From: Vermamoeba vermiformis
Lineage: Eukaryota
Reading direction: 5' to 3'
Assembly (NCBI GenBank): GCA_045837725.1
Contig: JBEWZL010000124.1
Span: 248,001 to 312,000, forward strand
Length of the DNA: 64,000 bases
In this document: piece by piece, positions 2,529 to 60,911 of the stretch
Numbering within the stretch: the stretch's first letter is position 1
Layout of the letters: each line of letters opens with the position of its first letter
Program-made: the position numbers and the translations under genes
The notes under the pieces: generated by a model
Databases searched by the model: none
Seen by the model: only the letters and a program-made list of their open reading frames with translations
What the model was told of the DNA's origin: nothing

Positions 2529-4158
2529 TCAACGATCGACTTTTAATATAGGGATGATTATGGCCACAAAGCTGACTAAAACTGATACAATTATAATAGC
2601 TGAAGCTGTGTAGCGAGGTCGGTCAGGTCTAGAAGACAATTTGGGGCTTGCTGGTTTCGCTTGGGAAGATTCATCGTCTTTGTGCTGTAGATTCCACCTG
2701 CAAAGAAACAAAGTCAATAACTTTGTGATGATCAACCATGCCTTAAGATAAAAACAATTTATGTGTCTTACGTACGTCATTCTCGCCAAAGCATCATCAC
2801 CAATCTCTTGCAACATCTCGTTGAGATTGCCACGAGGATATTGTTTGCACGACACTTCAAAGTACTTCATGTGAAGTTCACTAGCGACCATCTGATTATG
2901 CATTTAATTAGCAAAGTATCTCAAGATAACGAAATTTCACGTCGTCACTCGTTCATTAACCAATGAAGCATGATCAACCATACCTGGGCCTCTTCTTTGG
3001 AGATGGCGCGGTTCTGGTCCATATCGCTCTTCAAACCAACTAAATAAAGCTGCACTTGTGGCATCAACTCACGGAGGTGATGGCACTGCGAGAGCGTTAG
3101 TTCCATGAGCTGGACAAAGCTGGATCTGCTGTCAATAGCAAAGCACAACAAAATCGACTGTGCACCGCGGATATAGGCTGCAGAAATATGTCGAAATCTG
3201 TTGAACTAAAGATCGGTGTTAATCACCATTGAAAATCATATGCATTTTGATCTTTCGCCGGGTAAGGTGACGATGACACTTTGACACTTTGACACGTGTC
3301 ATTATTAAGCTATCCCGCTGACACTTACATAATAGTTGTCCCACTAGTCAATTTTAAATGGTTAGTATCCGTTTTTATATTGTAGCTTTTACGTACGATC
3401 TGCAGCCTAACTGAAATGTCATCGTCGTTCGTAATGTCTTTATGCACCTGGGATCACAATCTGATGAGTTGGTTCGACGAAACTATTCTATTAATGTCAG
3501 CTTACAAAGTCAAGCCATACTTTGTTGGAGCCTATGCTCACATCGTTGCAATATTGGTCATCCTGGATCTAGTTAGTACTGACGAAAAAAATCGTAACTT
3601 ACGATGAGAGTCTGGATTAATGTTGTTTTACCAGCCCCTACCGGACCAAATAAGACCATTTTGATTATGCAAGCATATTCTGGATTGGTCGTTGTAACGG
3701 TAGTGCGTTGTCTTTGTATCCGATCGGAGATCCAGCTGCGTTGGGTTAATTCGAGTAAGACGAATAAAGGCGGGGCATACTATTGTTTAATCTCTTCTTT
3801 AGTTGCTTTTCGATGCGTTGGTCGACTAGTGAAGTACGATATGACGTCTATTTTTGGGTTGGTTATGTTTTTCAAATAAATAAATATTGAATAATTAATT
3901 AAATAAATTGACAGGAGTTTGCAAAAGGTAGACTTTTTCTACGGTAGCAATTAATATTGGCAGAATAGATTTGATTAAATCATTTCTTACTTGATCTAAC
4001 TTACCTTGGTCCCATTTTACGTCATTTATGTTCGCAAGGGATTTTCTGCTTTTAATTTCATTGAAAAACAGCCATGATACGCGCTTGCACGAGATAACGT
4101 CGCGATAATTGGTGACGAAGTTGAGGATGTGGCACCAAATCTCCGTTGGAACGTCCAT
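2529..4158 (-). CDS. F-box / Rab-like GTPase fusion, copy 1, C-terminal TM anchor
   Basis: F-box MDVPTEIWCHILNFVTNYRDVISCKRVS; P-loop GPVGAGKT; LQI-WD; RFRHISAAYIRGA; G4 VGLKSD; G5 FEVSCK; hydrophobic tail ASAIIIVSVLVSFVAIIIPIL. Confidence 0.85.
3274..3301. promoter_or_regulatory. Conserved intronic TGACAC-repeat/palindrome element, candidate splicing enhancer
   Basis: TGACACTTTGACACTTTGACACGTGTCA is identical at 6794-6821 in the homologous intron of copy 3. Confidence 0.5.
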
Positions 4159-4293
4159 TGCAGGTACCGTAGTATATTTATATATCTTATGCATTTAATT
4201 TAATCGAAAAGTACAAAAAAATGAGGAAACGCGGTCGTAAAAGACATTTTCAGGTCATGAAAGAAATTTCGTTGAAATTATCCGATTTTCCGT

Positions 4294-6013
4294 TTACCAT
4301 AAATTAGCGATTGCCACCGCTACTAATACAACAGCAGAGGATATAACCAATGCCAATCCGCTACGAGATTGATTTGATCTCGAGTACGATTCAGATCTTG
4401 ACTTTTTCTTTCGGTTTCTCATTATCTTCATGCAATTTGCTCCATCTGTATTTTAAAGATGAGTATCGATTGTATCAATAAATAAATGTATTTACATCAA
4501 CGTACTAAATTAATTCTCTTACGTCATTCTCGCCAATGCATCTTCACCAATCTCTTGCAACATTTCGTTGAGATTGCCACGAGGATATTGTTTGCACGAC
4601 ACTTCAAAGTACTTCATGTGAAGTTCACTAGCGACCCACTAAATACCAAACTAGCTAAATTTCATGAACGCAAAAGTTGTGTGTACATTCCGGGAAAGGA
4701 TCATAAAAATGCTTGACCGAACGCAGACACTAAAATCATCCATGAAGGAGCTAAGTGCCCGATTGGCTTTTCGTCCCGCTTTGTATTACTCGGATCTGTC
4801 TGTACCTGAGCCTCGTCATATGACACTTCATCAGTTGTCAAATCGTCTTTCAATCCAACGAGGTAAAACTGTTCATGATCCAATCGCATTCGATGTTCAT
4901 AACACAGCGCTAATGTCTCTTCAAGCAATTCAATCAAGCTGGATCTGTCGTTAACGGCGAAACACAACAGAACGACACTAGAACCGCGGAAATATGACGT
5001 GAGAATCAATTTCTTAAACCGCTCGGCCTAATAAAACTTAGATAATGTATAACGAAGGCTAATTTTAGACCTCGTTCAACGTGTCAAATTTGACATTTAA
5101 GTTCGGACCTCAAATGTCAACTTATAACTTACGTGATATGTGTCCCACTAATAAAAAAACATTACTATATATAACTATTATATATACGCGTGGCTTACAA
5201 TTTGAAGCTTCGCTGACACGCCGTCGCTGTTTGTGATGAGTTTTTGGACCTAACAAATGCCGTTAATGAAGTTATTTAAACGCTTGCTAACTTACTATTA
5301 CAAACTCCTCTCGCACTCTAATGCTGCCCAAATATGGCTCGTCTTCGCTGTACCTTCCTTGCTAGAGGTAAAATTTTTAACTGAAGTTCGGATCTAACAA
5401 AAACTTACGGCTATTGTTCGTCTCAACGCAGATTTTCTGACTTTCGAAGGGCCTACGATGACTGATCTTGACTAAAAAGAGATATTCTCCGTCAATATTT
5501 GACTTTCGCTCTTCAGGAGGGCACGAGATCCAACTACAAGGATTGAATTAAACGACTAATCATTTCAATAAGGAAGTGGTTCATACTACTGTTTGATCTC
5601 TTCTTTAGTAGCTCGAGGATAGGTTTTGTTATTGGTAAAATACGCTGCAATCTCTGTTTTAAAGCGGCGAAAGTCAGATCGATTTTCAAATAAAATTAAA
5701 ATAATTCAAATTAAATTAGCAAAACGAATATCATGTATTATAAATTACATTCTTGCCGAATTTATAGTTTAGGAATATTTAAAACGGGCGAATAAGAAAA
5801 ACTTGAAATTGTATTTGCCGACGTACCTTCGTCCAATTGAACGCCTAAAACATTCGAAATAGCTTTCTCGTATTTAATAATACTGTATAACTGTCGAGAT
5901 ATTCGCTTGCAAGATATTAAATCGCGAAAATTGGTTATTAAATTGAGGATGTGGCACCAAATCTCTGTTGGTAATTCGGGAGCGCTTGATTCGTGCTTCG
6001 GGATGCCGTCCAT
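4294..6013 (-). pseudogene. F-box / Rab-like GTPase fusion, copy 2 (frameshifted as given; pseudogene or assembly error)
   Basis: F-box LPTEIWCHILNLI; +1 shift near 5463 before P-loop GPSKVRKS; WDTYH; VGLKDD; FEVSCK; TGA at 4391 precedes an out-of-frame TM tail GLALVISSAVVLVAVAIANLW. Confidence 0.65.
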
Positions 6014-6200
6014 GATCTTACTTCCACTGTTTAATAAATTAATCAATTGAACGTGATTTTGCTAATTTTTGTTGAGGGCTCACAAAAATTTATTTGAACG
6101 AGGTGACGTCTTAGAGGCCTCATTGGAGGTTCTTCCGATCCTGAAAGCAATAGCCGCCAAGTAATAAAGAAAAAAAGGACAAAATCCGTCACGATTTCAT

Positions 6201-7709
6201 TCACACAATGACGCACATTCGTGTCGTGCTTGGTTTTACCACTTCTTCTAGTTCTTGTAGTTTGATCCCTCTACGCCACATTAATAGAAGTGTTAATATA
6301 AGACAGTTAGAAAACAATTAAGGACTTAATTCGATGTTAAGTAAACGTACGTCATTCGTGGCCAATGCATCTTCACCAATCTCTTGCAACATTTCGTTGA
6401 GATTGCCACGAGGATATTGTTTGCACGACACTTCAAAGTACTTCATGTGAAGTTCACCAGCCACCGCCTAAACAGTGAGGTTAAACTTAAGTTTTCATGA
6501 ACGGTGAAAAATGTTCCGTACTTCAGCCTCGTCAACTGACACTGCACGATCTTGCGCCAAATCAGCCTTCAATCCAACGAGATAGAACTCAGGGTGTTCC
6601 ATGACATTTAAGCTGTTAAAACATTGCACGAGTGTTTCTTCGAACAGCTTGATAAAAGTAGATCTGTCGTCGATAGCAAAGCACAACAATACTGCGTTAG
6701 TTCTTTTTAACATAGGTTGACGAGGGAAATACTGAAATCAACTAATATTAGTTCAAGGCTTGAAGACATCAACCAAAACGAAGCTGTCGAAAGTGACACT
6801 TTGACACTTTGACACGTGTCACTCTCAAATTCCATGGCTACTTACCCAGCACGTGTCCCACTGATAAGAAATTTAGAATTATATTACGTTAATCACAGTA
6901 ATGTCATTTGAAACTTACAATTTGAAGGTTTACAGGCACACCGTCTTTGTTCGTTACTCTTCTAACTACCTGGCAATGCTATGTAAACTTCATTGCCGCA
7001 CTTAAATTAAACTTACAAAGTCCGTGCTAGTATCGTAATTGTTGTAACAATCGTACTAATTATGTTAACAGACATTAGTAATTTTTTAGCGGATCCAAAA
7101 AACAAGATTAATCGTACCTGCAGAGTTCGTTTTATCGTCGATTTGCCAACCTTGCATCTATATGGACCCATAATAACTGTTTTGACGAGATACAAATATT
7201 CATCGCCGGATCTGTAGTCGACTAACCGCTTCGTAAGACGGGAGAGCCAACTAAGAGCGCATCAATTACGTCAATAGTTGAAGTTGAATAACAGCTTACA
7301 ATTGCTTGATTTGTCTTTGAGTAGCACAAGGATGCATTGGTCGACTGGCAAAATAGGATGTCACGTCTGTTGATTGAGGTCAGATCCAATTTTCAAATAA
7401 AAAGACGAATTTCCATCCTAATTATTTCATAGATAATTTTTTTAAAACTCGATATAAATTATAATTATGATAATTAATTTAACTCTACAGCTAATCTTGC
7501 AAACTTAATTTCTCGAGAGACTTACTTTGGTCCCATTTCACTCCAAGATACGAAAGAATTATCTTATTTGAAGATTCTCCATAAAATAGTTTCGACACTC
7601 GCTTGCACGAGATGATATCGCGAGGACGAGTCACGAAGTTGAGGATGTGGCACCAAATCTCGTTCGGCAATTCCACTTTACGTTTATTGGGCCAAAGAAA
7701 GTTTAACAT
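6201..7709 (-). CDS. F-box / Rab-like GTPase fusion, copy 3, C-terminal CaaX (CVIV)
   Basis: F-box LPNEIWCHILNFV; P-loop GPYRCKVGKS; WDTCW; VGLKAD; FEVSCK; last exon ends RMCVIV* if one extra base near 6360 is removed. Confidence 0.75.
6794..6821. promoter_or_regulatory. Second copy of the intronic TGACAC element
   Basis: 28/28 identity with 3274-3301. Confidence 0.5.
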
Positions 7710-7837
7710 AGCTATATTACAGCTGTGAGTATGTATTCCACTCGAAAAATAATGCAACTGAGCAGGAGGAAAAAATCACGTGCTGATCAATTTTGGTTCC
7801 GGACGCCAACACTCATTTTCCAATCCTTTTGGACAAG

Positions 7838-10158
7838 ATGAACAATCCCTTGTATTATATAACCATATTTTTATATTTATTCTCAATTTTGAGGACTGCA
7901 ACGGCAGAACAACAACTGTTGCAAAATGTTGAAGGAAGATCTGCACCTACAGTGATGTATATACCGCTAGATGAACGATTTACGACAAGGTATCTATAAT
8001 AAAGATATGTAATGGTGTTTTGAACAATTCAGATTGTTGCGAACTACAGTGCTCGCACGAATATTTTCTCCGATAAATATCCAAACAAATTTTTTAATTA
8101 ATTTAAATGCATATAATCGAGTACTATAATTAATATTGCTTTGTCAGGTTTGCGTTCTTAAATCTAGCCAAAACTACGCCTTACAAAGTGCTGACACCAT
8201 CAATGGATCTGATTTCTCATTTGAAAGTGCCAGCACCGATTCAACAGCTCACTAATTGGATCATGACTAATGTACAACACTCCGATTATGCGGCGATATC
8301 CGCTGAGATGTTTCTGTAAGCTACATCCGTTTGCGAAAATTCGTCTAACAAACATTCATGCCAGTTATGGAGGGCTTATTCAAAGTCGCCGCGACCATTA
8401 GCAATAATACATATGATGATATTAATGCGCGCCTGCAACTGCTAATTGGCATTAAAAAGCAATACCCGAATTTGAAGCTATTTTTGGCAACAGTTGTCAT
8501 GCGCATTCCAGCTTACAACGGAGATTTTGAAGAGCCTTGGTATTGGGCTAACTATGGATATGATCTATACTGCTATTCGTTCTATCAGGACAAGTACGAA
8601 AGTAGATCAAATTCTCATTCAATGCGCTTATTATTTTCCTTATTAGGTATAATATGCTTGGAAATCCAGCGGACCTCAAACAAGCGCAACAATGCGAGTC
8701 TCAAGTGCCTAAACACATCGTCAGAGAATTCTTATGGAGAAGATCTCGTAACTTTAACATTACTCGAGATCTGATTATAGCTCTCGCGCAATCGCCAGCC
8801 AGTACGAATATTCTATACTACTATATAGCTATAATAATAACCTATATTACTAGACAACAGACTATTGGAACAGATGTACATTACTTTGGACGACAATGCT
8901 CGTACGTACCGGAACTTTATCTTATTGAAATGATGCAGCTAGGCTAATCAATTCATTCAAAATAGAATATGGATTTAATATACGTGAAGCAGCACAACGT
9001 CGCGAGTTAGTAACCAAGCTCAATTTAACAAATTTGGTTTACATTTATCCGGGAGCTGACGAGGCACGTGTCATATATTCATGTCTAATAAGGCTATACT
9101 TATATACTATATTAGGTCGGACTTACTATGTTAGGCAAATTATCGACAAATTACGCAAAGTACCAGCCACGCATCCAACTCGTGTTCCGCGATCCAAACA
9201 CGATCTATTACATTCCAAACTACGAAGGTACAGTAGCTATATGTCGCGATTACTATACTAATACGAGTTTTTTATAGGCCAACCAATGATTGAAACGATT
9301 GAGCAGCAGATCCGCGGCGCAGGAGGAGTCATCGTGAATGACACGAACGCTGACATTTTGATGCTGGTCAATAACTTCAGCGAGGAACATCAGCTTGAAG
9401 CACCCAATCAGCCTATGAACCGCAACACTAGCGACTATAGTCCATTTAATACTTGGGTCCATAACAGAGTTCCAGGTCAAGTTGTTGGACTCGCGGATGT
9501 GAGGTAAGAACTGGTCAAAAAAAGCGTATATTGCATCGTAGGGTATAATAAGCTCTTCATATTGCCTCAGATATTCTAATGGCGGTGATCGAATGTTTTA
9601 CTCGTGGATGTTGGAACGGTTACAAGTCGACAATTTAAGAATGCAAGAGTTTGCTTACGCAGGTAAAAAATAACATTATTAAGTAAAATATGGCATGGTC
9701 CTGATATTTTTGATACGTAGGATGGAATACTGACGGCAATAAGCTCGGAACAGTAATTTCAAACTCGATCGTGCTTAGCTTGTTTAACCAAAAAGAGCAA
9801 AATACGTACTTCAATACTCTAAGACTACTAGAGGATATTTATTATCAAGCAATGTTGCGTCAGAACTTGATTGACTATGTTTATCTCACGAGTAAGTAGA
9901 TCGAGACGTTCGATCTAAACGACGCTCGCGCTTTTCTTATTTTTTACTGATGGCTATACTTACTCTATATATTATACAGGTGACTCGCCTAACAATTTGG
10001 CAGTCGATTTAGACTTCTACGAGCATTGGGTTTGGAAAGTACTGTCCGCGAACTACGCATCCATCAACCAGAATTACCAATTAGACTGGACCCTCGATAA
10101 CTGCTACTTCCCTTGGAATAGAACATTTGAGATCGGATTTTTTGCTAGCAATAACTAA
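7838..10158 (+). CDS. Secreted DUF4127-family protein, multi-exon
   Basis: Signal peptide; family motifs YIPLDERF, YGGLIQSR, YPGADEVG, YAGWNTDGN, FPWNRTFE; apparent frameshift near 8390. Confidence 0.75.
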
Positions 10159-16871: not shown

Positions 16872-19800
16872 TTAGGTGAGGTTACCGTTATTAGTAAAGC
16901 CAAAATTGTCAATGTAGTAGTTGTTCGTTTGTCCATCCACCTGTCCAACTTGCACCGACAAAATTGTTGCAGCTTCAGTCAATGCGAATTGGCTCGTGGC
17001 AATATTAAATACGTTCCATTTGCCTGCAGTGACTTGCAATGGGATGCTAGGCAAACTAGAGGTCCAACTGCCAGAGTATAATTGGATGTAAAGACCGGTG
17101 ATGTCGCGATCCGCCCAAAAAGCCAAATGCAAGTAGGGCAATGAAGGGTCGATACTAATGCCTTTAATATCGATGATGAACCATTGGATAGCCACACTCG
17201 CGAATTTCATCGAGGAGGTTTCAGAATTAACGACGGTGTTGTCAATCGAGTAAACTGAAAAAAAAATGTTAGAATAACTAATAATAAATCAAAAATAATT
17301 AATTGTATATTTTCATCGATTAATATAGCAGTTAAAACATTGACGTTGACTTACTTTGACTGACAGAACATCCAGCGCACATTTCATCGCGGAAGACGTA
17401 GAAGTACGTCGATGAAAAAAACGCAAAGTCATCGATGTAAATGTTGTTCGTTTGAGAGTTCTGACCCAACGCCAACGAGACAGTTGTGATCTCGCCAGAG
17501 AGCACGAACTGGGACAACGAAATGGTGAATGTGTTCCACTTGCCAGCCTCCATAGCTTGCAAGAATACAGCAGGAGTAGATGAACTCCAATCTCCGCTGT
17601 AGACTTGGATTTTTCCGCCGGTCAAGGGCAGATCCGAGTAGATGGCAACGCGGATCGAGTCGTACACTGACACGTCTTTAGGACACGCGCGGAAATCAAT
17701 AACAAACCACGTGCTTGTTACACCTGTGTAAAGCAATGAAGTGCTGCCAGCGTAAGCTTGTGCTGAGCTAATCTGATAGCCGGACGCTGTCAAAAAGTCA
17801 GTCTCGTGCCGCGCAGTTTTGACTGTTTTTGCTCTTACCAGCTGGTCGCCAAGCAACAGCAAAGTCATCGCGGAATATAAAGAACTCGTTGAGAGTTTGC
17901 TGGTATCTGTGAGGCAAGCCAGCAACGGTCGGTTGATTGAAGACCGGTGTCGTAGTGGGGCATGCAATATTCACACCAAGAGTTGAAGCAGGTGTTACGA
18001 GCACTGAAACTCCGAGAGGATATCTTCCATTGTTGTCACGACCAGTGATAGCCAAGTTCAAAGGCGGGCGGTAGCCAGTCGAGTCGAGGACGGCTAAGTA
18101 AGCCTTATACAAGCCTACTGGCACCGAGCTGCTCGGAAGGGTGAACGAGTTGGATCCGTAGTACGAGTTCAAATCAGGGAACACGTTGGTAATGTCAATA
18201 ATGCTCGTAGTTTGGTAGGTCGTGCTGTCACTAATAAAGTTGGATCCAGTGCACGATGAAATGTCGTAGACCGAGTTACGAAGGGCGCCACCACATCGTT
18301 CAGTCTCATCGCCAGTGCACGATTGAGCGCACTCTGATTCAGCGGCAGTGCCGTAGGTACCATAACTATTGCCACAATAGCATTGATTGCTTCCTTGCAA
18401 GCCTGCGTACTTGAAGCCTTGATTCTTGCAAGTGTTCACGCAGTCTTCAATAGCCAAAGCCGCGGATGTCATTGATGACCCAGAGATGTCACGTGAGCTG
18501 CCGGAGTCAGCGTAGCATCCCAAATATGACACGCACGTGGGTCTGAGTTCGACAACAGTGCTCCAAGGGTCGTAGATTCGGCTAGTGCCTGTGTTTGACA
18601 TGTTCAGTCCAACGAAGAAGCATTCGTTTTGAGCCACGAGAGTTGACACACGGACGGAGTTGACGTTGGCAATGAATCCCATCATACGTCCGAGCTCGGC
18701 AAGGTCAGCAAGTTGTTGCGAAGAGTAGCCACTGCTCGTGACAGGGATGTTTCCGTTGCCAATAGTTGAGAAGTGGTAGTCACGTGCTTCACGTTGAGCT
18801 TCGGCAAAGTCATACGAACTAGCGGGGGAACCAGATGTGAATTCTGCGAATGAAGGAGCGGTTCTCCATCTATGTTGAGCGATGGGCCACGATCTGAAGT
18901 TGTCCCAGTTGTAAACTTGACTGAAAGTGTCAATGCGAATGCCAATGTTCGATGACCTCTTGATGGCGTAACAGGTGCTAACGTCGTCGTTGATATTGAT
19001 GGTCAAGTACAGATTTGGGAATGCATTGGCAACGATGTCAATGTACGCCTGTTTCGTGGCCGTTGAGGCTTCTTTGTCGTTTGTGCAGACAGACGAAGGA
19101 TGCCACTCGCCGTAGTCGCCGATCAATCCAATATCAATCCAGCCCAGGCGCTTGTCGTTGGAGTACTTGCTCGCCAGAGCAGCAAACAAAGCAGTAACAC
19201 GCTCCTTCATGAACGCGTTCTCCCAGTCCGGAACAAACGTGTCTTTTTGGCCGTTGCCGTCAGCATCGCAGTTGAGAGCGCCGCCTTGATTTTGATAAAT
19301 GTACGTAGGAACACCAATGCCTTTAACCCAAGAGTCCAAAATCATCACCCTAAAGCCGAATTTTCCTCCGTTATTAGCTGCCTTCGTGAGCTCATTGTCG
19401 ATGACAGTGAAGTCGTAGACACCTTGAGAGGTCTCAAGGGTGGCCCAGCTCCATCGATTGTATGAATCTTTGAAGGGTGCAATAGATTGACTGATAACGT
19501 TGTAGTCTGATCCAAGCCAGTTGTAGAATCCTCTAAACGGATTGGCTTGAGTTGTGGTCAAGACTGTCGGACGCACTGTGACCTCATCTTCAACACTTCT
19601 TTTGGCACTTTGTTGAATTCTAACCTCAAAAACTATGCCACATAAGTATCGTTAGTGTCTATCTCAATAGTTTATAAGTATTCTTGTATTATTACCTGAG
19701 CAATCATCGCCAGAAAAACCGTCGAAACACGTGCATCGGCCATTGTTTGTGTTGCAAGTTCCACTCGCGCTGCAGTTATTCGGGCACACGAGGTTGCCGT

Positions 19801-51488: not shown

Positions 51489-53367
51489 ATGGTAAGAAGA
51501 AATGTCATGGTTTTTAGCGCGTTGGCCTGTCTAATAAAAGTTTTATACCCAAATCCGGATTTAGTTCGGGTGCTTTTCCTCCATAAATTTTCATTGAATA
51601 ATAAAAAATTACGGGTTATTTACGTATAATAAAATCAAATTTACGAAGAAAGATTTTTGACGTCAACGAATTAATCTTTATTTTCTGCAGGAAACACCAA
51701 ATAATGCACATAGACTTCTCATTATCAATTCGCAAGGAGACTTCAATATGATACACGAAGGGATTATCAATGTTTTACCCGACTGTTCTTATCAATTAGG
51801 CAACCTGAAGAAACTGGATGTGTACATTACCTTATTCGATGAAGAACGGGGGATAGATACAAAGTGCAATTTGCTCAAGGACAATACCACAATTGAAACA
51901 CTCAAAGTCCAGGCAGTATTCGACACGAACCTAAGTGCGAAGTTTATTGGCGTTTTGCGATCCATGACTCGATTGCGCTCATTGGCCCTTCACATTGCCG
52001 GTATTACAGACTATCCTGCAGAATTATTAGCGAATGAAATATGTGCATGCAAAGGAATCGAAGAGTTGATTATTAAAGACGCAACTTGTTGGACAGAAAC
52101 GGCTCCTGGTCGCGACATTAAGAACCTGCTCAAAGGGTTAGATAAATGCCCAAATCTATCAAAAATCTCATTAGAAGTCCATTCTGACGATGCTATGTTG
52201 GCGTTGGGTGGTTTGATACGATCACTTAAACCATTAAAAGAAGTACACCTCGTATTGAAAGGGCCGTTCAGCGGTGAAGCATTAATGTCGGTCTTTAACA
52301 CGACTATTCAACTATCAGTAGGTATAGAGAGTATAGTTGGTGCGAGCGACGAACATTACGTAAGCATCTTAAACGCACTACAGTCGACTACAAAGTTGAG
52401 AGAGCTGCGTTTGCTAGAAGTTACTTTAGACCAAGAAATGCAGAAAGCAGTGTCTGACGTATTGACGAAATGTCATTTTCTGAGAAATTTGGAGCTTTCT
52501 AGCCCTTCACTACAGATTGTGCATGATAGTTTAATCGATGCGTTGCAAAAGAGAACGTTGCCGCTTGAACAATTCAACTGCTCTTACTTAGCGATGGACA
52601 CCAACTTCAATAGAGCAATAGAATCACTAAGAAACGCAACATTTTATCGGTGTCATTTTAAAGAGCAAGAGTCTTTTTGTGCCGCAGTAGCAGATAACAG
52701 AACGATTGAAACTTTAGCATTGATCGATCTTAAGCTATCGGAAAAACAATGCACAGCGATACAACACCTGCTACGGACAAATTCGACACTGAAAGAGCTC
52801 AATTTAAAAAATCAGCACGTAGCAGCAAAAGGAGCGGTAGATATTTGTCGTGGACTGCAAGCGAACAATTCACTCTTGCGATTTCATATGCCTGGAAATA
52901 TGCTTGGATTTGTAGCGTTCGAAGCGTGCAATGAAATGTTGCAAGTGAATGACACGCTCGAAGAGCTGTCAATCAATTACGTGTTCTCTGATCGCGAGCT
53001 GAAAGAGATTTGCAACGGCTTGAAATTGAACAAGTCTCTGACGTCCCTCCATTTCTACAAAAAACCGGATCTGGACTATGGATCAGTATTCGCGGAACTT
53101 CTCGAGGAAAATCACGTGCTGAGGAGTGTCACTTATGGCGAGATAAAACTGAAGCTGTCAAGTGAACAAATGGACAAATATTTGGAAAGAAATCAAGCAA
53201 TTTGCGAAGCGACGAAAAAGGACATGATTATTTTGTTTTGTAATATTCGAAGAAGCACCGAAGCATTGCAACTATTTCCTGTTGAGATCTGGCTGCAAAT
53301 ATTTAAACCCCTTCGGCTACTTGGCTGTGGATATTATGAAACGGCTAAATTTACATTATTGCAATAA
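51489..53367 (+). CDS. RNI-like leucine-rich-repeat protein with C-terminal F-box-like motif
   Basis: ATG-only first exon, then a long exon from 51691; NSTLKELNL/NNSLLRF/NDTLEEL/NKSLTSL repeats; LQLFPVEIWLQIF near the end. Confidence 0.8.
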
Positions 53368-53450: not shown

Positions 53451-56288
53451 ATGGCAGATGAAAAAGTAATCACTATTGTTGAGGATGGGGTTGGATGTAA
53501 TTGATAATGACATTGGTCCCGACGGCCAATCGAAGGTTGTTACAGAGTTGTGGCAAACCCTCTCTGGACTACAGGCACGAGGCACATTTGCTTGCAGTGG
53601 ACAAGTAAATATTGCACTTCCAGGTAAAAATAGCTATATCTTACGGGGTTTAGTGGTAAATTACTTGTTCTTTTCTTCGAAAATATTGTATAATATTATT
53701 CATCGATAGTGCTAAATTCATTCTCGATAAAAACGTAATTACTAATCGTATAAAGTAATAATAAGATATTATTAATTAATTTTTTCATTTATTTGGCGAT
53801 TGCACAATTTTATTTTGCTCATCTGTTGACAATCTCTTTCTCAGGCCTCAGTATTGACGGCTATGGCGAAGCTGGTTTTCCTTTAAGAGATCATGAAGCA
53901 AATCAACTTATATCCCTTTGTCAACAAGCGTCTACTGCTCGAGGAGTGGATTTGGCAATTGACAGCTCAGTTGGCCATTGGCAATTAGGTACCGGAAAAT
54001 ACTAAATTAAAACTAATATATGATACTAATCGTAATTGGTAGAGCCTTCGAACTTTCGGTTGATGAACAAGGAGTTCGCGCGGCAGATCGACTCGCTCGC
54101 GGTCACTGTTGCCGAAGAACTTGGTTTAGGTCCTCGTCCCTTTAATATTGCTGCTCAATTATCCAAGTTGTTACTCGAAACAAGTGGTTGCAAGCCATAC
54201 AATGACTACGATAACAACAAACAAGAAGGCAAATTCGCGTCATTGGTGGTCACACTACCGAGCATTTGTGAAGGTGGTGAGGTCATTGTGCATCATCAAA
54301 GCATGACCAAGACGTTCAAAGCAGAAAATTCCGCTTATTCTGCGAATTACGTGGCGTACTTTTCGAACTGCAAACACGATCTACTACCGCCGACATCAGG
54401 CTATCGATTGTCCCTCATCTATAATCTCGTTAGTCTTAACAATGACCCGTTGCCGCAGCCTGCGAGTACTGACGCGATAATTAAAGCAATGGACTGTATT
54501 CACAGATGGACCAACTTGCCCACTCCCCCTTCAAAGGCACGTGCACGACTAATAACCAATAATAGTATTAACCTTCCCATTGGTAGGCTGCATTTATAAT
54601 AGAACACAAACATACACCTGACGGAGTACCGTTTCAAGCGCTCAAATATCGCGACAAAGACATTGCGCGTATTTTGCATGAAACAACGCAAGGAACAAAT
54701 TTGGAGCTCTACGTGGCGTTGCTTGCAAACATTACCGATGGATATAAGCGCAGATCAGAAAGCTTCAAAATTCATTCATTGATCAACGCTCGTGACGGTG
54801 ATCGGATCGACGTAAAAATACCCGTTGAACAGTCAGGTAGTTACTGAGTATCACGCTACGACATAATTGCAATTTGCTAATTTGATCAATTATTAGAGGT
54901 ATTCCCGCCCGAATATTTTAATGATAAGACCGCGGATGTAGTCAAAAAAGATACAAACCCAACAAATTACAGGAGGAAACCCAAAAAATTACTATTTTAT
55001 GCGGTTGCCCTGGTGCTACTGTCTAGAGATAAGCTTATTGACATCATTGGCACAGGTGACAAGAAAAGTTGTATGAAATACATTGTGTCGTTGGTGGCGA
55101 AGAACCTCGAAATCAAATCGAGGGATGCGGCAGAGTGGCAATCTTGCCACAAAATAGCGCGACTACTCTTGGAAAGGAATGGTTGTAACTTCAAGCCAAA
55201 CTCTAGTTTCTTAGACGCTTTGCTCGCACTTGGCGATGTCCAACTAGTACGAACTTATCTCGACACACTGGTTCCCTATCATTCTGATTTCCACGACGAG
55301 TTACCACAATTTTGCACTGTCATTGAGCAATGTTTGATCAAGTTTGGATGGGAGTCCCTTGCCACAACAATTTATACCTTTCTGACCAAATGTACGTACG
55401 AACCTATTTTTAGCCAAATTAACGCATGTACAGGGTTGCCATTGGAAGATGCCGTACAGTTTACTTTAACGCGCGGCACGACATTCAAAAACGACGAAAA
55501 GGCGTATGAACTGTTGCGGTCTGTTGCTAAGAATTTGATTAAAAAGAAGACCAAGGAATTTTCTCATAACAATAGAATAGTTTTCATCGAGTTAGCAAAA
55601 CTTGCAATAACTATTGTTCCAACACTATTACCTGACGTAAGGACGATGAAATGTTCAGAGTCAGTTCATAAGTACTAATTTCTCTAACAGGTCTTTAAGC
55701 TAATATGCGATCGCTTTACAAATGTCTACCGAGATTTAGTGCCCATTTTGAAAAGTCTTTGGCAACAAATACCAACTATTGCAGACAACACGGTATTTGT
55801 TCGGCATACCCAGAAAGCCATTGTGTCTCTTCGCAATCAAATTGCGGTTGCTCGGGCACGGTTAGATAATTGGAGTTTTTACTCTGATCGTCGTTGCATC
55901 TGTGACGCTTGTAACCAGGTATAAGTTGTGCATTAATAGTGCGGCAATCAAAAACGAAGATGTTAACACTTTCTCGTAGGTTTCGCAGTTCTTACGCGAT
56001 CCTGTGAAAATGGAGTTCGAATATATAGGTGACAGTCGGGAGCATGTCGAGTGGCATTTGGAAACTTTGCGCGAGAACAAACTCATTTCAATCAGTACAA
56101 CTACTCCTTACACCCTAGTGATAACCAAGGTCAACAAAGAAGCGGATGCAGCTCGCAACGGTGCAGTGAAGATTCAAGCAGAAGTCGATGAATTAATGAA
56201 TATGATTAGAGTTAATAATGACGACCCGGCCGAGCAAGAAAGACCTACTAAACGACAAAAAGTTGGGCACGAGAATGGTCATATCTGA
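53451..56288 (+). CDS. 2OG-Fe(II) oxygenase-superfamily protein, paralog 1
   Basis: FACSG, PGLSIDG..FPL, FASLVVTLPS..GGE, TSGYRL.L.YNL; C-terminal CxCxxC and NLS RPTKRQK; start needs a +1 correction or lies at 53485. Confidence 0.75.
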
Positions 56289-56593: not shown

Positions 56594-58591
56594 ATGGACG
56601 ATGACGGCATATTCTCTGGGTCGCCAAATGACTGCACTGAGGACCTCCATGACGTCAGCTCTCCAGTCTTGACCTTGTGGAACGTTATCTCGAGACTAAA
56701 AGTACCCGGAGCATTTGCGTATGGCGGACAATTATGTCCTGTGCTTCCAGGTAAATCTTGCTAAGGATCAGGAAATTAATTATTAGAAAATTTAAAAAAT
56801 AGTTAAGCGCACTTTTATGCTTTAAAATTGCTGCTTGCATGAAAGAATATCGACAAAAATCAAACGCTAATTTTTTGACCAATTGAAAACAGAATTTTTT
56901 TTGCGCCTCGATCTGTATTTCTTGTCTAAAATATTAATTAGTCGCTCGCCAGGCCTGTGTTTGAATGAATACGGAGAAGTGAGCTTTCCTTTTAAAGAAA
57001 ACGAAGCTAAGCAAATAATTCTCCTATGTCAACCTGCATCCGCCTGTGATGACTCGAAAACATGGCAGATGGGTACGCACTATAATCAATAAATATTATT
57101 AACCCATTGGTTGTGCTAACGTTGTATTAGACCCGTCGATGTTTCAGCTGCTGAACTCCGATTTCGTTCATCAGATCGACTCTCTCGTGGTCACTGTTGC
57201 CGAAGAACTAGGCTTGGCTCCATCAGCGAAAGTTGCTGCTAAGTTATCCAAATTACTGCTTTACGAGCCAGGTGGAGCATTCGTGCCTCACAAAGACACT
57301 GAGAAGGCTCAAGGCATGTTCGCGTCGTTGGTGATAACGCTGCCGAGCATCTTCACAGGTGGTGAGCTCGTTGTGCAACATCAAGGCATGACAAAGACGT
57401 TCAAGCCAGATAAACCAGCATATAACACGAGCTACACTGCATTTTTCACCGAGTGCAAGAGCGAAATGCAATCCGTGACGTCAGGATATCGATTGGATCT
57501 CGTGTACGACATGGTCAGTCTTGGCAGCGATGCACCGCCACAGCCAACAAGCTGCGAGTCAATTTTTCAAGCAATAGACTCTATAACCAAGTGGACTGAT
57601 CTAGGCACGCCGTCACAGGTAACATAATGAGACCTCTAATGAACTTCAATAACGAACCTTCCTGCTCAGGCTGTGTTTGTATTGCAGCAGAAATATACGC
57701 CTGCAGAGCTGTCTCTTGAATCGTTGAAAGGCAAAGATAAAGCGATGATGCAAGTGTTACAAGAAGCGATCAGAGGCAGAGAGTTGATGCTCTTCGTTCG
57801 CACCACATGTTGCAAGTTATAACGGCTGAGTTAATTAAATCTCGAGCTCCAGCAGAGTATCGCTTATTGTCACGACAAACCATCGGTGATTTGGCACGTG
57901 TAGCAGCTGTCGTTGATCCAGCACTGCATGCGGACGTAAGTTACGCAAAACAATATAATATACTAATAGCACCTAGCTCCTCGGTACTTACCCGTCAATC
58001 AGATCTTCAAGTATTTGTATACTCGCTACGCAAACGTAGATTCAGAGTTCGTGCCAATCTTGAAACTGCTTCATGAACAAGTCCCAAGCATCACCCAACG
58101 GCCTGAATTCATTAACATAGCCACGCAATGCATTAACTTCCTCAAAAATCGTGTTACTGCTGCACTGGCACGTGCCGATGATTGGAGCGTAACTGGCAAA
58201 GTTAATTGCAATTGCGGACCTTGTACGCAGGTAAGGAGCATGCGTTTAAATCGTTCTTATGATTCTTAATAATATGCCATTGTAGGTGAACTTTTTCTTG
58301 CAAAGTCCAAAGTTGCTGGAACACCGCTACAAAGCAGCAGAGCGCGCACGAAGTCACGTGTCACAAATGATCTACGCGACAAAGTTGCCAAACCACGGCA
58401 TTCTAGAGGTCACCACTGAAACTAGTGGTGCAAGTCATGCGTTGGTCATTCGCAAAACAGCGAAAGAACTCGATGTGGCCAAACAAACTGCAGTACAGGA
58501 TGAACTGACGATTGCAGAGTTGACAGGAATGATGACACTCGACGCGTCAGAACGAGCGGCTAAACGGCAGAAACTTGATGATAATAACTAA
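56594..58591 (+). CDS. 2OG-Fe(II) oxygenase-superfamily protein, paralog 2 (internally deleted, possibly pseudogene)
   Basis: KLLLYEPGGAFVPHKDTEKAQGMFASLVITLPS, VTSGYRL; lacks the central region of paralog 1 at ~57800 with a frame break; CNCGPC; AAKRQK. Confidence 0.7.
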
Positions 58592-59212: not shown

Positions 59213-59520
59213 GTCTACGATGTATTAATACTTGTAAAGCCAACTCGGTCAAACCTAAACTCTTTTATTCTTTCGAATTACCAAACTAACAACAGGAGTG
59301 ACAGGCAAGTGGCCACTGTAATAGCAATCGCGTTAGCGGCACTTGAAGTTGTTGCAGAGGGAGTTTGAGCTTTGACGGGCACACTGGTCGGAGCTGTTGG
59401 AACTGCCACAGGAGCCAAAGAGCATGTTTTGCCGTCACCAATGTAACCACTCTTGCACGTGCAAGTGAACAAGAAGTAATCCGCTGCCTGGCACTCCGCA
59501 TTGACGTCACAATCTTGCAC
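58818..59520. repeat. Right arm of the inverted segmental duplication
   Basis: Reverse complement of ~37900-38563. Confidence 0.9.
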
Positions 59521-60911
59521 AGTCGTGACACAGGGATCTTGTGGGATTAACCAAATGTCCGCGAGATAGGGGTTCATGATGGATTGTCCGCCCATCACTA
59601 GTAAGTTTCCCTTATTGTTAATGCCTACTGAACCTCCGGGATAATAACGAGATCCGAATGTGCTGCCTTCAGTGCGGTAGTTGGTGTAAGAATTGTTGAT
59701 CTTACTGCCGTTAGCATCGCCGTAGACGTGCTTCCACAGCTTGCTGGTCGTGTTGAACAACCAAAAGTCGGTAAACCACTTGTCATACTTTGGATTAATT
59801 CCAGTTCCAATCATCAACGTACCGTCTTTGCGGTCAATCAAAACCGTTCCGTCACGTGCCGCGGGATAATTATTAACGTCAAACTCATCGGGGACAGCGA
59901 CAGATCCGGTGGTACTGAACGAAGATTCGTTGCCCCATTCGACACGCCATTCTAAAGTATTGGTGTCAAACGACCACAAGTCACCCCAGTCCAACTGCTC
60001 GTTGAAACCTTCAGGCTGCGAGCCATAGCCACCAAAGATCCATACCCGATCGTTGCTATCAATGTCCGCTCCTGCAGCCCAGCGACCATTCCAATAGTTG
60101 TTTGCGAAGTCAATGGTTTTAAGTGTATTCAACTCGCCCCACATCCAAGTCCACATCATCGAAGTAGTATTGAAGTGCCAAACTGAGTTGAAGGTGATGC
60201 TATAGAAGCCTCCAAGCACCCATAAATTGTTTTTAGAATCTACGACCATCGCGGCACCAGACAGAGAGCCTGGGTAGTTCTCGATCGAAGGGATGCCTTT
60301 TCCGACCGAAACTGCTTCTTTAATTGAGTCGTTGGCTGTAAGGTAGGTGAACTGAAGCGAAGTAGTATTGAATAACCAGAACAAGTTTTTGGGCGCATCG
60401 TCGTTTCCGTAAATCCAGATGTTGTCGTGGCGATCAATAGCAGATGCAGGCCACGTAACTCCACCAATAAAAGCATTAGGATCTTGTATTCCAACTTCAC
60501 CTTTAACACGGTAATTATTTTGATAATCTGATACGCCAGAAACCCAACGGTAAAGATCAGTCTTTGGATCGTAATTCCAAACCTGATTGACCCAATAATT
60601 GCCATAACCGCCGATAATCCATACTAAACCTTTAGAGTCTACTTGAATAATAGGGCCAAAAGCGCGACCACTGGCTCCAATGGTGACGTTAGTCCATTCT
60701 CCTTTTGGTGGACTAGCTGGCGGTTCGTCTGGTTTCAACGATTAATATTTATTAACATATAATAATGTTTAACTTATTATTTAATAATAATAATTTGCTA
60801 AATTTTAACTGTCTTACCTGTGTCTGGATTTAGAGGCGAAAGCCAAATTGGAGAAATAGCCGTACACGAGACAGCAAATAGTGCTATCAACAATACTTTA
60901 TCCGCATACAT
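59278..60911 (-). CDS. Kelch-repeat beta-propeller + EGF surface protein with GPI-like tail
   Basis: Signal peptide MYADKVLLIALFAVSCTA; WIIGGYG/WVLGG/WIFGGYG repeats; EGF CDVNAEC..CTCKSGYIGDGKTC; S/T/P stalk and hydrophobic end. Confidence 0.88.

Follow-up and report, generated by a model that had tools for sequence, protein, structure and literature searches.

What does an amoeba do with a Rab-like GTPase domain that has an F-box in front of it, in at least two of three copies a hydrophobic end behind it, and GTP-binding motifs that have been partly lost? Three neighboring genes of Vermamoeba vermiformis raise this question. They lie in contig JBEWZL010000124.1, of which we analyzed positions 248,001 to 312,000 (64,000 nucleotides, the window, numbered here from its first letter). 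The window has a eukaryotic character, with about 40% G+C and short GT-AG introns. At 2529-7709 on its minus strand it holds three head-to-tail paralogous genes of nine exons each, which we call A, B, and C. Our best reading, with a probability of roughly 0.55, is that they encode membrane-anchored receptors of the Skp1-Cul1-F-box (SCF) type in which a pseudo-GTPase serves as the binding module.

Three spliced genes and their domains

Gene models were made by joining exons by coordinates after reading the three frames of the minus strand. A preliminary description of this DNA had proposed a three-copy tandem array, and the span given there matches our models exactly, from the stop codon of C at 2529 to the ATG of A at 7709. 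Hidden Markov models (HMMs) of exons 1, 3, 7, and 8, run against the six-frame translation, found only these three family copies in the 64 kb. The genes are as follows.

2529..4158, minus strand: gene C (copy 1 of the preliminary description), exons 4158-4005, 3847-3781, 3735-3603, 3562-3506, 3447-3397, 3343-3329, 3205-2984, 2891-2776, 2697-2529
4294..6013, minus strand: gene B, exons 6013-5827, 5653-5587, 5533-5409, 5361-5296, 5249-5199, 5147-5133, 5027-4806, 4638-4523, 4445-4294
6046..7709, minus strand: gene A, exons 7709-7526, 7366-7300, 7250-7118, 7055-7017, 6969-6919, 6860-6846, 6731-6522, 6467-6351, and a provisional last exon, 6270-6046

Gene C has an uninterrupted coding sequence of 984 nucleotides (327 residues) in nine exons, with GT..AG at all eight introns; an upstream in-frame ATG at 4194 is an alternative start. 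Gene A is an open frame of 347 residues, again with GT..AG at 8/8 introns. Exon phases are identical in the three copies, as is the exon plan. Exon 1 encodes the F-box, exon 2 a linker (67 nucleotides in every copy), and exon 3 the end of the linker and the P-loop. Exons 4 and 5 cover the switch I region and beta2-beta3, and exon 6 is a 15-nucleotide micro-exon for W-D and three more residues. Exon 7 runs from a switch II remnant through G4, exon 8 holds beta6, G5, and alpha5, and exon 9 encodes the tail. In each copy the GTPase domain is spread across six exons, the micro-exon among them.

The claim that one spliced message contains both the F-box and the GTPase exons was borne out by X5, one public run from a related organism that is stored as contigs and presumed to be RNA. 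Its contigs lack the introns, at the predicted GT-AG borders, for 20 to 21 of the 24 junctions. Read on the plus strand, the skipped stretches have CT..AC ends, equivalent to GT..AG in the direction of the genes. Because the joints are intron-less and sit at canonical borders, the contigs point to spliced RNA, and other explanations are hard to find. One contig of 702 nucleotides runs from the F-box exon of C (4165-4005) through exon 7 (3205-2988) and includes the micro-exon. For C, six of eight junctions were recovered (4005/3847, 3781/3735, ~3603/3562, ~3506/3447, and 3397/micro-exon/3205). For B there were seven of eight (5827/5653, 5587/5533, 5409/5361, 5296/5249, 5199/micro-exon/5027, and 4806/4638) and one partial, the last junction, which is backed by a loose end at 4523 and by record 3 (4287-4445). 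For A there were also seven of eight (7526/7366, 7300/7250, 7118/7055, ~7017/6969, ~6522/6467, and two by way of loose ends at 6919 and 6732 that hold the micro-exon). Summed depths over the three genes are about 4 to 47, and the pieces differ from the window at 0 to 15 letters per 134 to 218 nucleotides. The micro-exons are these.

3329..3343, minus strand: micro-exon of C, WDNYY, 15 letters between 3205 and 3397 in the X5 contig
5133..5147, minus strand: micro-exon of B, WDTYH, 15 letters between 5027 and 5199 in the X5 contig
6846..6860, minus strand: micro-exon of A, WDTCW, in the X5 loose ends at 6919 and 6732

The X5 contig for A departs from the window upstream of about 7660 and runs on in G+C-rich sequence, with a loose end at 7661. 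Copy A of the relative may differ in its N terminus or 5' exon; alternatively, the contig may be a chimera joined at the conserved F-box core.

Pfam scans were run on single exons rather than on spliced proteins, with cut-offs of 24.3 bits for PF12937, 20.5 for PF00646, and 21.6 for PF00071 (Ras).

7526..7709, minus strand: F-box exon of A, PF12937 30.6 bits and PF00646 21.4 bits, both above cut-off
5827..6013, minus strand: F-box exon of B, PF12937 28.2 bits and PF00646 21.9 bits, both above cut-off
4005..4158, minus strand: F-box exon of C, PF12937 20.5 bits (below the 24.3-bit cut-off) and PF00646 15.6 bits
6522..6731, minus strand: exon 7 of A, Ras 30.4 bits, lacking 4 residues of the switch II region
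4806..5027, minus strand: exon 7 of B, Ras 28.2 bits (scanned as 4796-5027; the joint 4806/4638 later set the donor at 4806)
2984..3205, minus strand: exon 7 of C, with the RFR..YIRG remnant, beta4-alpha3-beta5, and LKSD (G4), Ras 49.0 bits over profile positions 59-128

The expected N-terminal F-box is thereby recognized by PF12937 in A and B but not in C, whose F-box exon aligns without gaps with those of A and B. The F-box core of the window copies is canonical. On exon 7, the Ras profile scored above its cut-off in 3/3 copies. Exon 3 of C gave weak matches to many P-loop NTPase families (E 0.0015-0.18), and exons 8 and 9 of C matched no Pfam family at E up to 1. The short motifs quoted in the preliminary description (PxEIWCHILN, ISCKR, Y-x4-K-x-V-x2-G, LQIWD, GLKxD, and EVSCK) are present in all three copies, and RF...YxRG is confined to B and C, as had been claimed for copies 1 and 2.

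Relatives and the loss of switch motifs

A HMMER scan with the three exon-7 peptides returned 278 proteins at E ≤ 0.001, among them the window's own open reading frame (ORF), P0001. An HMM of the window F-box exons, applied to the best 150 of the 278, matched P0017 (292 residues, E 2.7e-11) and P0026 (301 residues, E 2.9e-6). Pfam was also run on ten candidates bearing N-terminal extensions. P0017 scored 122 bits for Ras and 20.3 bits for F-box PF00646 (cut-off 20.5), P0026 scored 107 and 20.2 bits against the same families, and P0089 scored 164 bits for Ras and 24.6 bits for an F-box-like domain, above cut-off. The spliced models can be aligned collinearly with P0017 and P0026, beginning in the F-box, continuing across the linker with its shared ...IxxYW..., and reaching the end of the G domain. 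C is 32% identical to P0017 over residues 1-283 of 327, and A is 34% identical to it over 13-294.

A maximum-likelihood tree was built from the G domains alone (80 rows, F-box left out). A, B, and C formed a clade with a support of 97 by the Shimodaira-Hasegawa-like approximate likelihood ratio test (SH-aLRT), and A, B, C, P0017, and P0026 formed one with SH-aLRT 99. The five-member clade stands apart from the 74 other Rab-like rows and from P0089. Since the clade was recovered from G domains, the tree points to a single origin of the fusion in these five proteins and marks them as a distinct F-box/Rab-like family. P0089 looks like a separate case.

P0017 lies on one 2,858-nucleotide JGI contig and is annotated "small GTP-binding protein." Of 1946 candidates in a search with it, 1434 proteins had E ≤ 1e-5, the closest being ordinary Rabs (29-43% identity). 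In the precomputed Pfam lists, which cover 120 of the 1434 matches, no further F-box/Rab protein with PF00646 or PF12937 was found. When exon 7 of C and exon 1 of A were used in word-indexed searches of longer proteins, they gave 8 and 4 candidates, respectively, none significant. Metagenome scans yielded 411 pattern stretches with P0017, none confirmed, and seven weak loci (29-40% identity) with the exon-7 alignment. A prokaryote scan with the family profile gave 79 loci, mainly from Asgard archaea but also several of Legionellales type, from other Gammaproteobacteria, and from other bacteria. The tblastn matches there begin at query residue 57 or later, mainly from about 82-151 on, which is the G domain. 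None of the 296 ORFs of at least 120 residues in these loci holds the family F-box together with the GTPase domain, and the best F-box E-value, 0.039, was in an ORF without a GTPase. The family is real, expressed, and conserved but rare.

That the GTPase part derives from a Rab had been suggested earlier, and the solved sequences nearest to the family profile are indeed Rab1A/B, Ypt1, Sec4, Rab3, and Rab8. The AlphaFold model of P0017 has a mean predicted local distance difference test score (pLDDT) of 78.6. Its G domain is mostly at 82-98. The model superposes on Rab8, Rab4, Rab3C, and Rab6 (template modeling [TM] score reaching 0.92 of the target, Z reaching 25.8, root mean square deviation 1.8 over 170 residues). 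Residues 1-90, with the F-box and linker, are at 51-71, so the model says little about the N-terminal half.

Is this Rab-like domain still a switch? We aligned A, B, and C with P0017 and P0026 and compared their nucleotide-binding motifs.

3603..3735, minus strand: exon 3 of C, end of linker and canonical P-loop GPVGAGKT
5409..5533, minus strand: exon 3 of B, P-loop GPSKVRKS, in which Arg takes the place of the second Gly; immediately ahead of this P-loop, the extra T at 5465 shifts the frame
7118..7250, minus strand: exon 3 of A, P-loop GPYRCKVGKS with a 2-residue insert (6 nucleotides relative to B and C)
P-loops of the relatives: GPPHTGKS in P0017, GPSGVGKS in P0026
Switch II: WDTAGQ in P0017, WDTAGA in P0026, WDNYYF in C, WDTYHA in B, WDTCWY plus the 4-residue deletion in A
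G4: TKAD in P0017, LKVD in P0026, LKSD in C, LKDD in B, LKAD in A

G1 is canonical in one of the three window copies, C, and the P-loops of A and B are aberrant. All three lack DxxGQ, with both the gamma-phosphate-sensing Gly and the catalytic Gln gone. G4 is changed from NKxD to LKxD in each, G5 is SCK in each, and no switch-I Thr is evident in any member of the alignment. The window copies therefore do not carry the intact set of G1-G5 and switch motifs that defines the Ras superfamily and the Rab family. Indels and most of the divergence between copies fall in the switch I and II regions. Taken together, these motifs make the G domain of the window copies a probable pseudo-GTPase.

Tail hydrophobicity was measured as the 19-residue Kyte-Doolittle mean.

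2544..2600, minus strand: putative tail-anchor segment of C, mean 3.11, followed by 4 residues and the stop
4300..4356, minus strand: putative tail-anchor segment of B, mean 2.58, followed by 1 residue; in frame only if an extra T at 4395 is discounted

A C-terminal membrane anchor had been predicted for every copy. It is clear in C and present in B when B is read through, and it is doubtful in A. By sequence, tail-anchored proteins carry one hydrophobic segment no more than about 30 residues from the C terminus and no N-terminal signal. This pattern was found, with the same doubt about A; the N termini of the window copies are F-boxes. The very hydrophobic segment of C suggests an endoplasmic reticulum or endomembrane route. 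No C-terminal Cys prenylation motif was found in the window copies, whose ends are hydrophobic tails. The relatives carry CaaX motifs there, CNVM in P0017 and CSVM in P0026.

Age of the array and its surroundings

The array had also been described as "expanding and diverging in tandem." Between copies, over 294-315 codons, the proportion of silent differences (pS) is 0.65-0.69, which is saturated, and that of replacement differences (pN) is 0.32-0.36. When X5 is compared with the window, 19 of the 27 exon differences listed are synonymous (14/17 in B, 5/8 in C, and 0/2 in A), and 13 more differences are unlisted. Because silent sites are saturated and all three copies are present and spliced in the related organism's run, the array is old and maintained. 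That description was thus not upheld: these are old duplicates under purifying selection, as judged from the substitutions, and not a young expanding array.

Exon 8 is near-identical in DNA among the copies.

2776-2891 (C), 4523-4638 (B), and 6351-6467 (A), minus strand: exon 8, encoding beta6, SCK as G5, and alpha5

Its DNA identity is about 97% among copies, and pS is 0.10-0.19 with pN 0.03-0.05, whereas pS is 0.47-0.92 in the other exons. The near-identical tract starts about 10 nucleotides inside the exon and stops at the donor, and the flanking introns do not align. Reads from unlinked paralogues outside the array contain it as well. Gene conversion accounts for pS and pN falling together in this exon but explains neither the exon-bounded extent of the tract nor its sharing among paralogues.

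A second short conserved piece lies in intron 6.

3274..3293 (C), identical at 6794-6813 (A), minus strand: intron-6 element, two exact matches in the window against 0.01 expected

It is 20 nucleotides long, consists of two and a half GTGTCAAA units, adjoins a CACGTG palindrome, and lies just downstream of the micro-exon. Copy B holds a degenerate version. In X16, an RNA-seq run considered below, 16 reads bear the element with other flanks. It may be a splicing enhancer for the micro-exon.

Elsewhere in the window, the neighboring ORFs encode WSC, Kelch plus EGF, P450, leucine-rich repeat (LRR), and 2-oxoglutarate (2OG)-oxygenase proteins. Two large single-exon ORFs lie on the minus strand at 17798-19651 and 59278-60741; one has a WSC domain (66.4 bits), and the other has Kelch repeats, EGF (34.7 bits), and a hydrophobic C-terminal stretch. 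On the plus strand, 51661-53367 is an open frame of 568 residues with leucine-rich repeats (LRR_14, 24.1 bits, below cut-off). Its end looks by eye like an F-box core (..FPVEIWLQIF..), and no Pfam F-box was found there at E ≤ 0.001. Two plus-strand ORFs that neighbor each other, at 54036-55678 and 57103-57627, have clearly similar starts, and the second weakly matches 2OG-Fe(II) oxygenase (PF13640, 20.9 bits, below cut-off). They are probably another tandem gene pair.

Proposed function and known systems

How might such proteins work? In the reading we prefer, the genes are three old paralogues of a small eukaryotic family, not named before, in which an N-terminal F-box and a helical linker of about 50 residues are joined to a Rab1/8-like G domain. 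In the window copies the G domain would have degenerated, and a C-terminal transmembrane tail anchor would have replaced the lipid anchor. The F-box would bind Skp1 and thereby recruit a Cul1-type ligase, while the tail would fix the protein on a cytosol-facing membrane. The GTPase-fold domain would no longer switch but would be a fixed module that presents partners for ubiquitylation, as in FBXO4. The switch I/II face is the one with which Rabs bind their partners, and it is the most variable part of the window copies; we therefore propose that the switch regions may set the specificity of each copy.

Several observations weigh against this reading. The F-boxes of C (20.5 bits), P0017 (20.3), and P0026 (20.2) are slightly below the Pfam cut-offs. 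The tail of A is weakly hydrophobic (mean 1.70), is followed by 31 residues, and has its homologous region read in another frame; the model of gene A also ends only 32 nucleotides short of the ATG of B. Copy C keeps an intact P-loop, the G4 Asp, and SCK and, by these motifs, may still bind nucleotide. The splicing evidence is a single run of presumed RNA from a relative, not from the window's own sample. Its depth is 0 over 2487-2860 (exon 9 and part of exon 8 of C) and over 6040-6226 (the putative exon 9 of A), and also over 7723-7900. Three RNA-seq runs labeled with the window's species, X14 to X16, gave 43, 41, and 60 aligned reads (144 in total), all of them partial matches. About 46-48% of each read lies on the stretch, and the remainder is unrelated sequence. 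They fall on the most conserved cores, namely, exon 8, a 23-nucleotide F-box core near 5946-5977, and 6652-6692. Because these reads are only partial and run into unrelated sequence, we assign them to other paralogues; they evidently come from further expressed members and not from these three genes. No RNA run was listed among those containing the stretch; small shares of it turned up in water and aquifer metagenome runs, which do not bear on habitat.

Copy B adds a further difficulty, for as assembled it is frameshifted twice, at 5465 and 4395. Immediately ahead of its P-loop there is one base more than in A and C. In the X5 contigs exactly one base is missing at each of the two positions (depths of 12.9 at 5465 and 4.0 at 4395), and when both breaks are read through with X, copy B yields 332 residues with the tail anchor at the end. 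The extra base is a T in both places, and the surrounding 7-mer, CAAGA[T]C, is identical. Given this shared context and the 14 synonymous changes among the 17 listed for B against X5, assembly error is the likelier cause, rather than a very recent pseudogene. A systematic error in this context may touch other genes of the assembly.

The same features bear on whether the genes do anything at all. Decaying, functionless relics could account for the two frameshifts of B, for the P-loop, switch, and tail defects of A, and for the finding that no X14-X16 read lies fully on the genes. However, all three copies are present and spliced in X5 at the depths given above, synonymous changes dominate between the two organisms (chiefly in B), frames and exon phases have been kept across saturated silent divergence, and the 7-mer shared by the extra bases of B suggests an assembly error. 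We consider decay very improbable. A slightly better but still small chance goes to the idea that at least copy C is a GTP-locked switch, one that binds GTP without hydrolyzing it and constitutively recruits the effectors of the ancestral Rab to the ligase, like a Q-to-L Rab. C does keep GPVGAGKT, the Asp of LKSD, and SCK, and P0026, with DTAGA, has already replaced the catalytic Gln. Even so, the DxxG Gly that contacts the gamma-phosphate is missing in 3/3 copies, the alignment shows no evident switch-I Thr, and the P-loops of A and B are aberrant.

Other alternatives concern the partners. The Rab1/8-like domain could be an integrated decoy that mimics a host Rab targeted by pathogens, so that bound effectors are ubiquitylated through the F-box and switch variation records an arms race. 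The G domain is nearest to Rab1/8/35-type Rabs, indels and most divergence lie in switches I and II, further expressed paralogues exist, and Legionella is reported to encode Rab-like and F-box proteins (bioRxiv 10.1101/350777). Nothing, however, points to any pathogen or binding partner. Saturated silent sites make positive selection unmeasurable, change between the window and X5 is mainly synonymous with no rapid change of the protein, and of the 79 prokaryotic loci that the family profile retrieved, not one carries the family F-box. We regard the decoy as improbable. About equally slim are the prospects of a non-SCF F-box protein, which would bind Skp1 but not Cul1 and would regulate or sequester a Rab regulator (a guanine nucleotide exchange factor [GEF], a GTPase-activating protein [GAP], or an effector) on the membrane without ubiquitylation. 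There is a precedent in yeast Roy1, an F-box protein of the non-SCF kind that is reported to work together with Skp1 on a GTPase resembling Rab5 (PMC3084679). The architecture alone fits such a protein as well as it fits an SCF receptor, but nothing specific points away from Cul1. F-box proteins with canonical LPxEIW..IL cores mostly assemble SCF complexes, which counts against this alternative.

The preferred reading can also be taken further. A protist lineage might have turned a prenylated, cycling F-box/Rab1-like protein into tail-anchored pseudo-Rab ligase receptors, whose hypervariable switch faces would capture Rab-binding proteins (its own regulators or pathogen effectors) for destruction at the membrane. 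This would be an independent, Rab-based use of the FBXO4 principle with an "integrated decoy" flavor, and its members would be co-regulated through one near-invariant exon shared in DNA. We think this extended version rather unlikely as a whole and offer it as a speculation.

How do these receptors compare with known systems? RhoBTB joins a Rho domain to BTB and works with Cul3, and Rab40 joins a Rab domain to a SOCS box and works with Cul5. Like them, the window family joins a Ras-superfamily domain to a cullin-adaptor motif, and Rab40 clusters were the top three feature matches for P0017 in the ESM Atlas (0.80-0.81). In contrast, its adaptor is an N-terminal F-box and not a C-terminal SOCS box or a BTB domain; no SOCS box was found in exons 8 and 9 of C, which have no Pfam match at the E-value given above. 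Rab40 keeps a working GTPase and prenylation. FBXL2 and Legionella AnkB are prenylated F-box proteins with a C-terminal CaaX. They resemble the family as membrane-attached SCF receptors, with CaaX as in P0017 (CNVM) and P0026 (CSVM), but their substrate-binding parts are leucine-rich or ankyrin repeats, and the window copies appear to use a transmembrane tail in place of CaaX.

The preliminary description had presented the array as the missing Cul1 counterpart of RhoBTB and Rab40. This does not hold, since FBXO4 is known, and ARF/F-box and Legionella Rab/F-box fusions have been published. FBXO4, an SCF substrate receptor of animals, is a Cul1-type F-box protein whose atypical small-GTPase-fold domain binds the substrate TRF1, and it shares with the window family the order of F-box, helical linker, and C-terminal GTPase-fold domain (PMC7086354). 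In the window family, by contrast, the G domain is plainly Rab-like (Ras scores of 28-49 bits for a single exon and of 107-122 bits for the relatives). Two FBXO4 clusters appeared in the ESM Atlas feature search with P0017, with scores of 0.80 and 0.78, which is a lead only. FBXO4 was absent among the best 60, 50, and 50 rows of the sequence and structure searches against solved relatives, and the N-terminal 95 residues of P0017 matched no F-box chain in the PDB. To our knowledge, FBXO4 has no membrane anchor.

Lineage-specific proteins of the ARF family fused to an F-box or BTB domain have been reported (Vargova et al. 2021, PMC8358228). According to that article, they likewise tell of small GTPases repeatedly drawn into ubiquitin circuits in protists; the domains there are of the ARF family, whereas those of the window family are Rab-like. 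In Legionella, effectors have been reported that carry a Rab domain together with an F-box, a U-box, or ankyrin domains (Gomez-Valero et al., bioRxiv 10.1101/350777). Like the window family, they unite a Rab-like domain and an F-box in one protein, but they are bacterial. No description of a eukaryotic F-box/Rab family or of a tail-anchored Rab-like protein was found in the literature searched, a search that left most subscription journals and supplements outside.

The practical gain is modest, because the function proposed here is inferred and its principle is already known from FBXO4. The family is nevertheless one more case, a Rab-based one, of small-GTPase folds coupled to cullin ligases (Rab40-Cul5, RhoBTB-Cul3, FBXO4-Cul1, and ARF/F-box). 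Its members appear to represent stages, from a canonical GTPase (P0017), through loss of the catalytic Gln (P0026), to the motif-dead, transmembrane-anchored forms of the window. They may thus provide a natural series for how a molecular switch turns into a static binding module and how one kind of membrane attachment is swapped for another.

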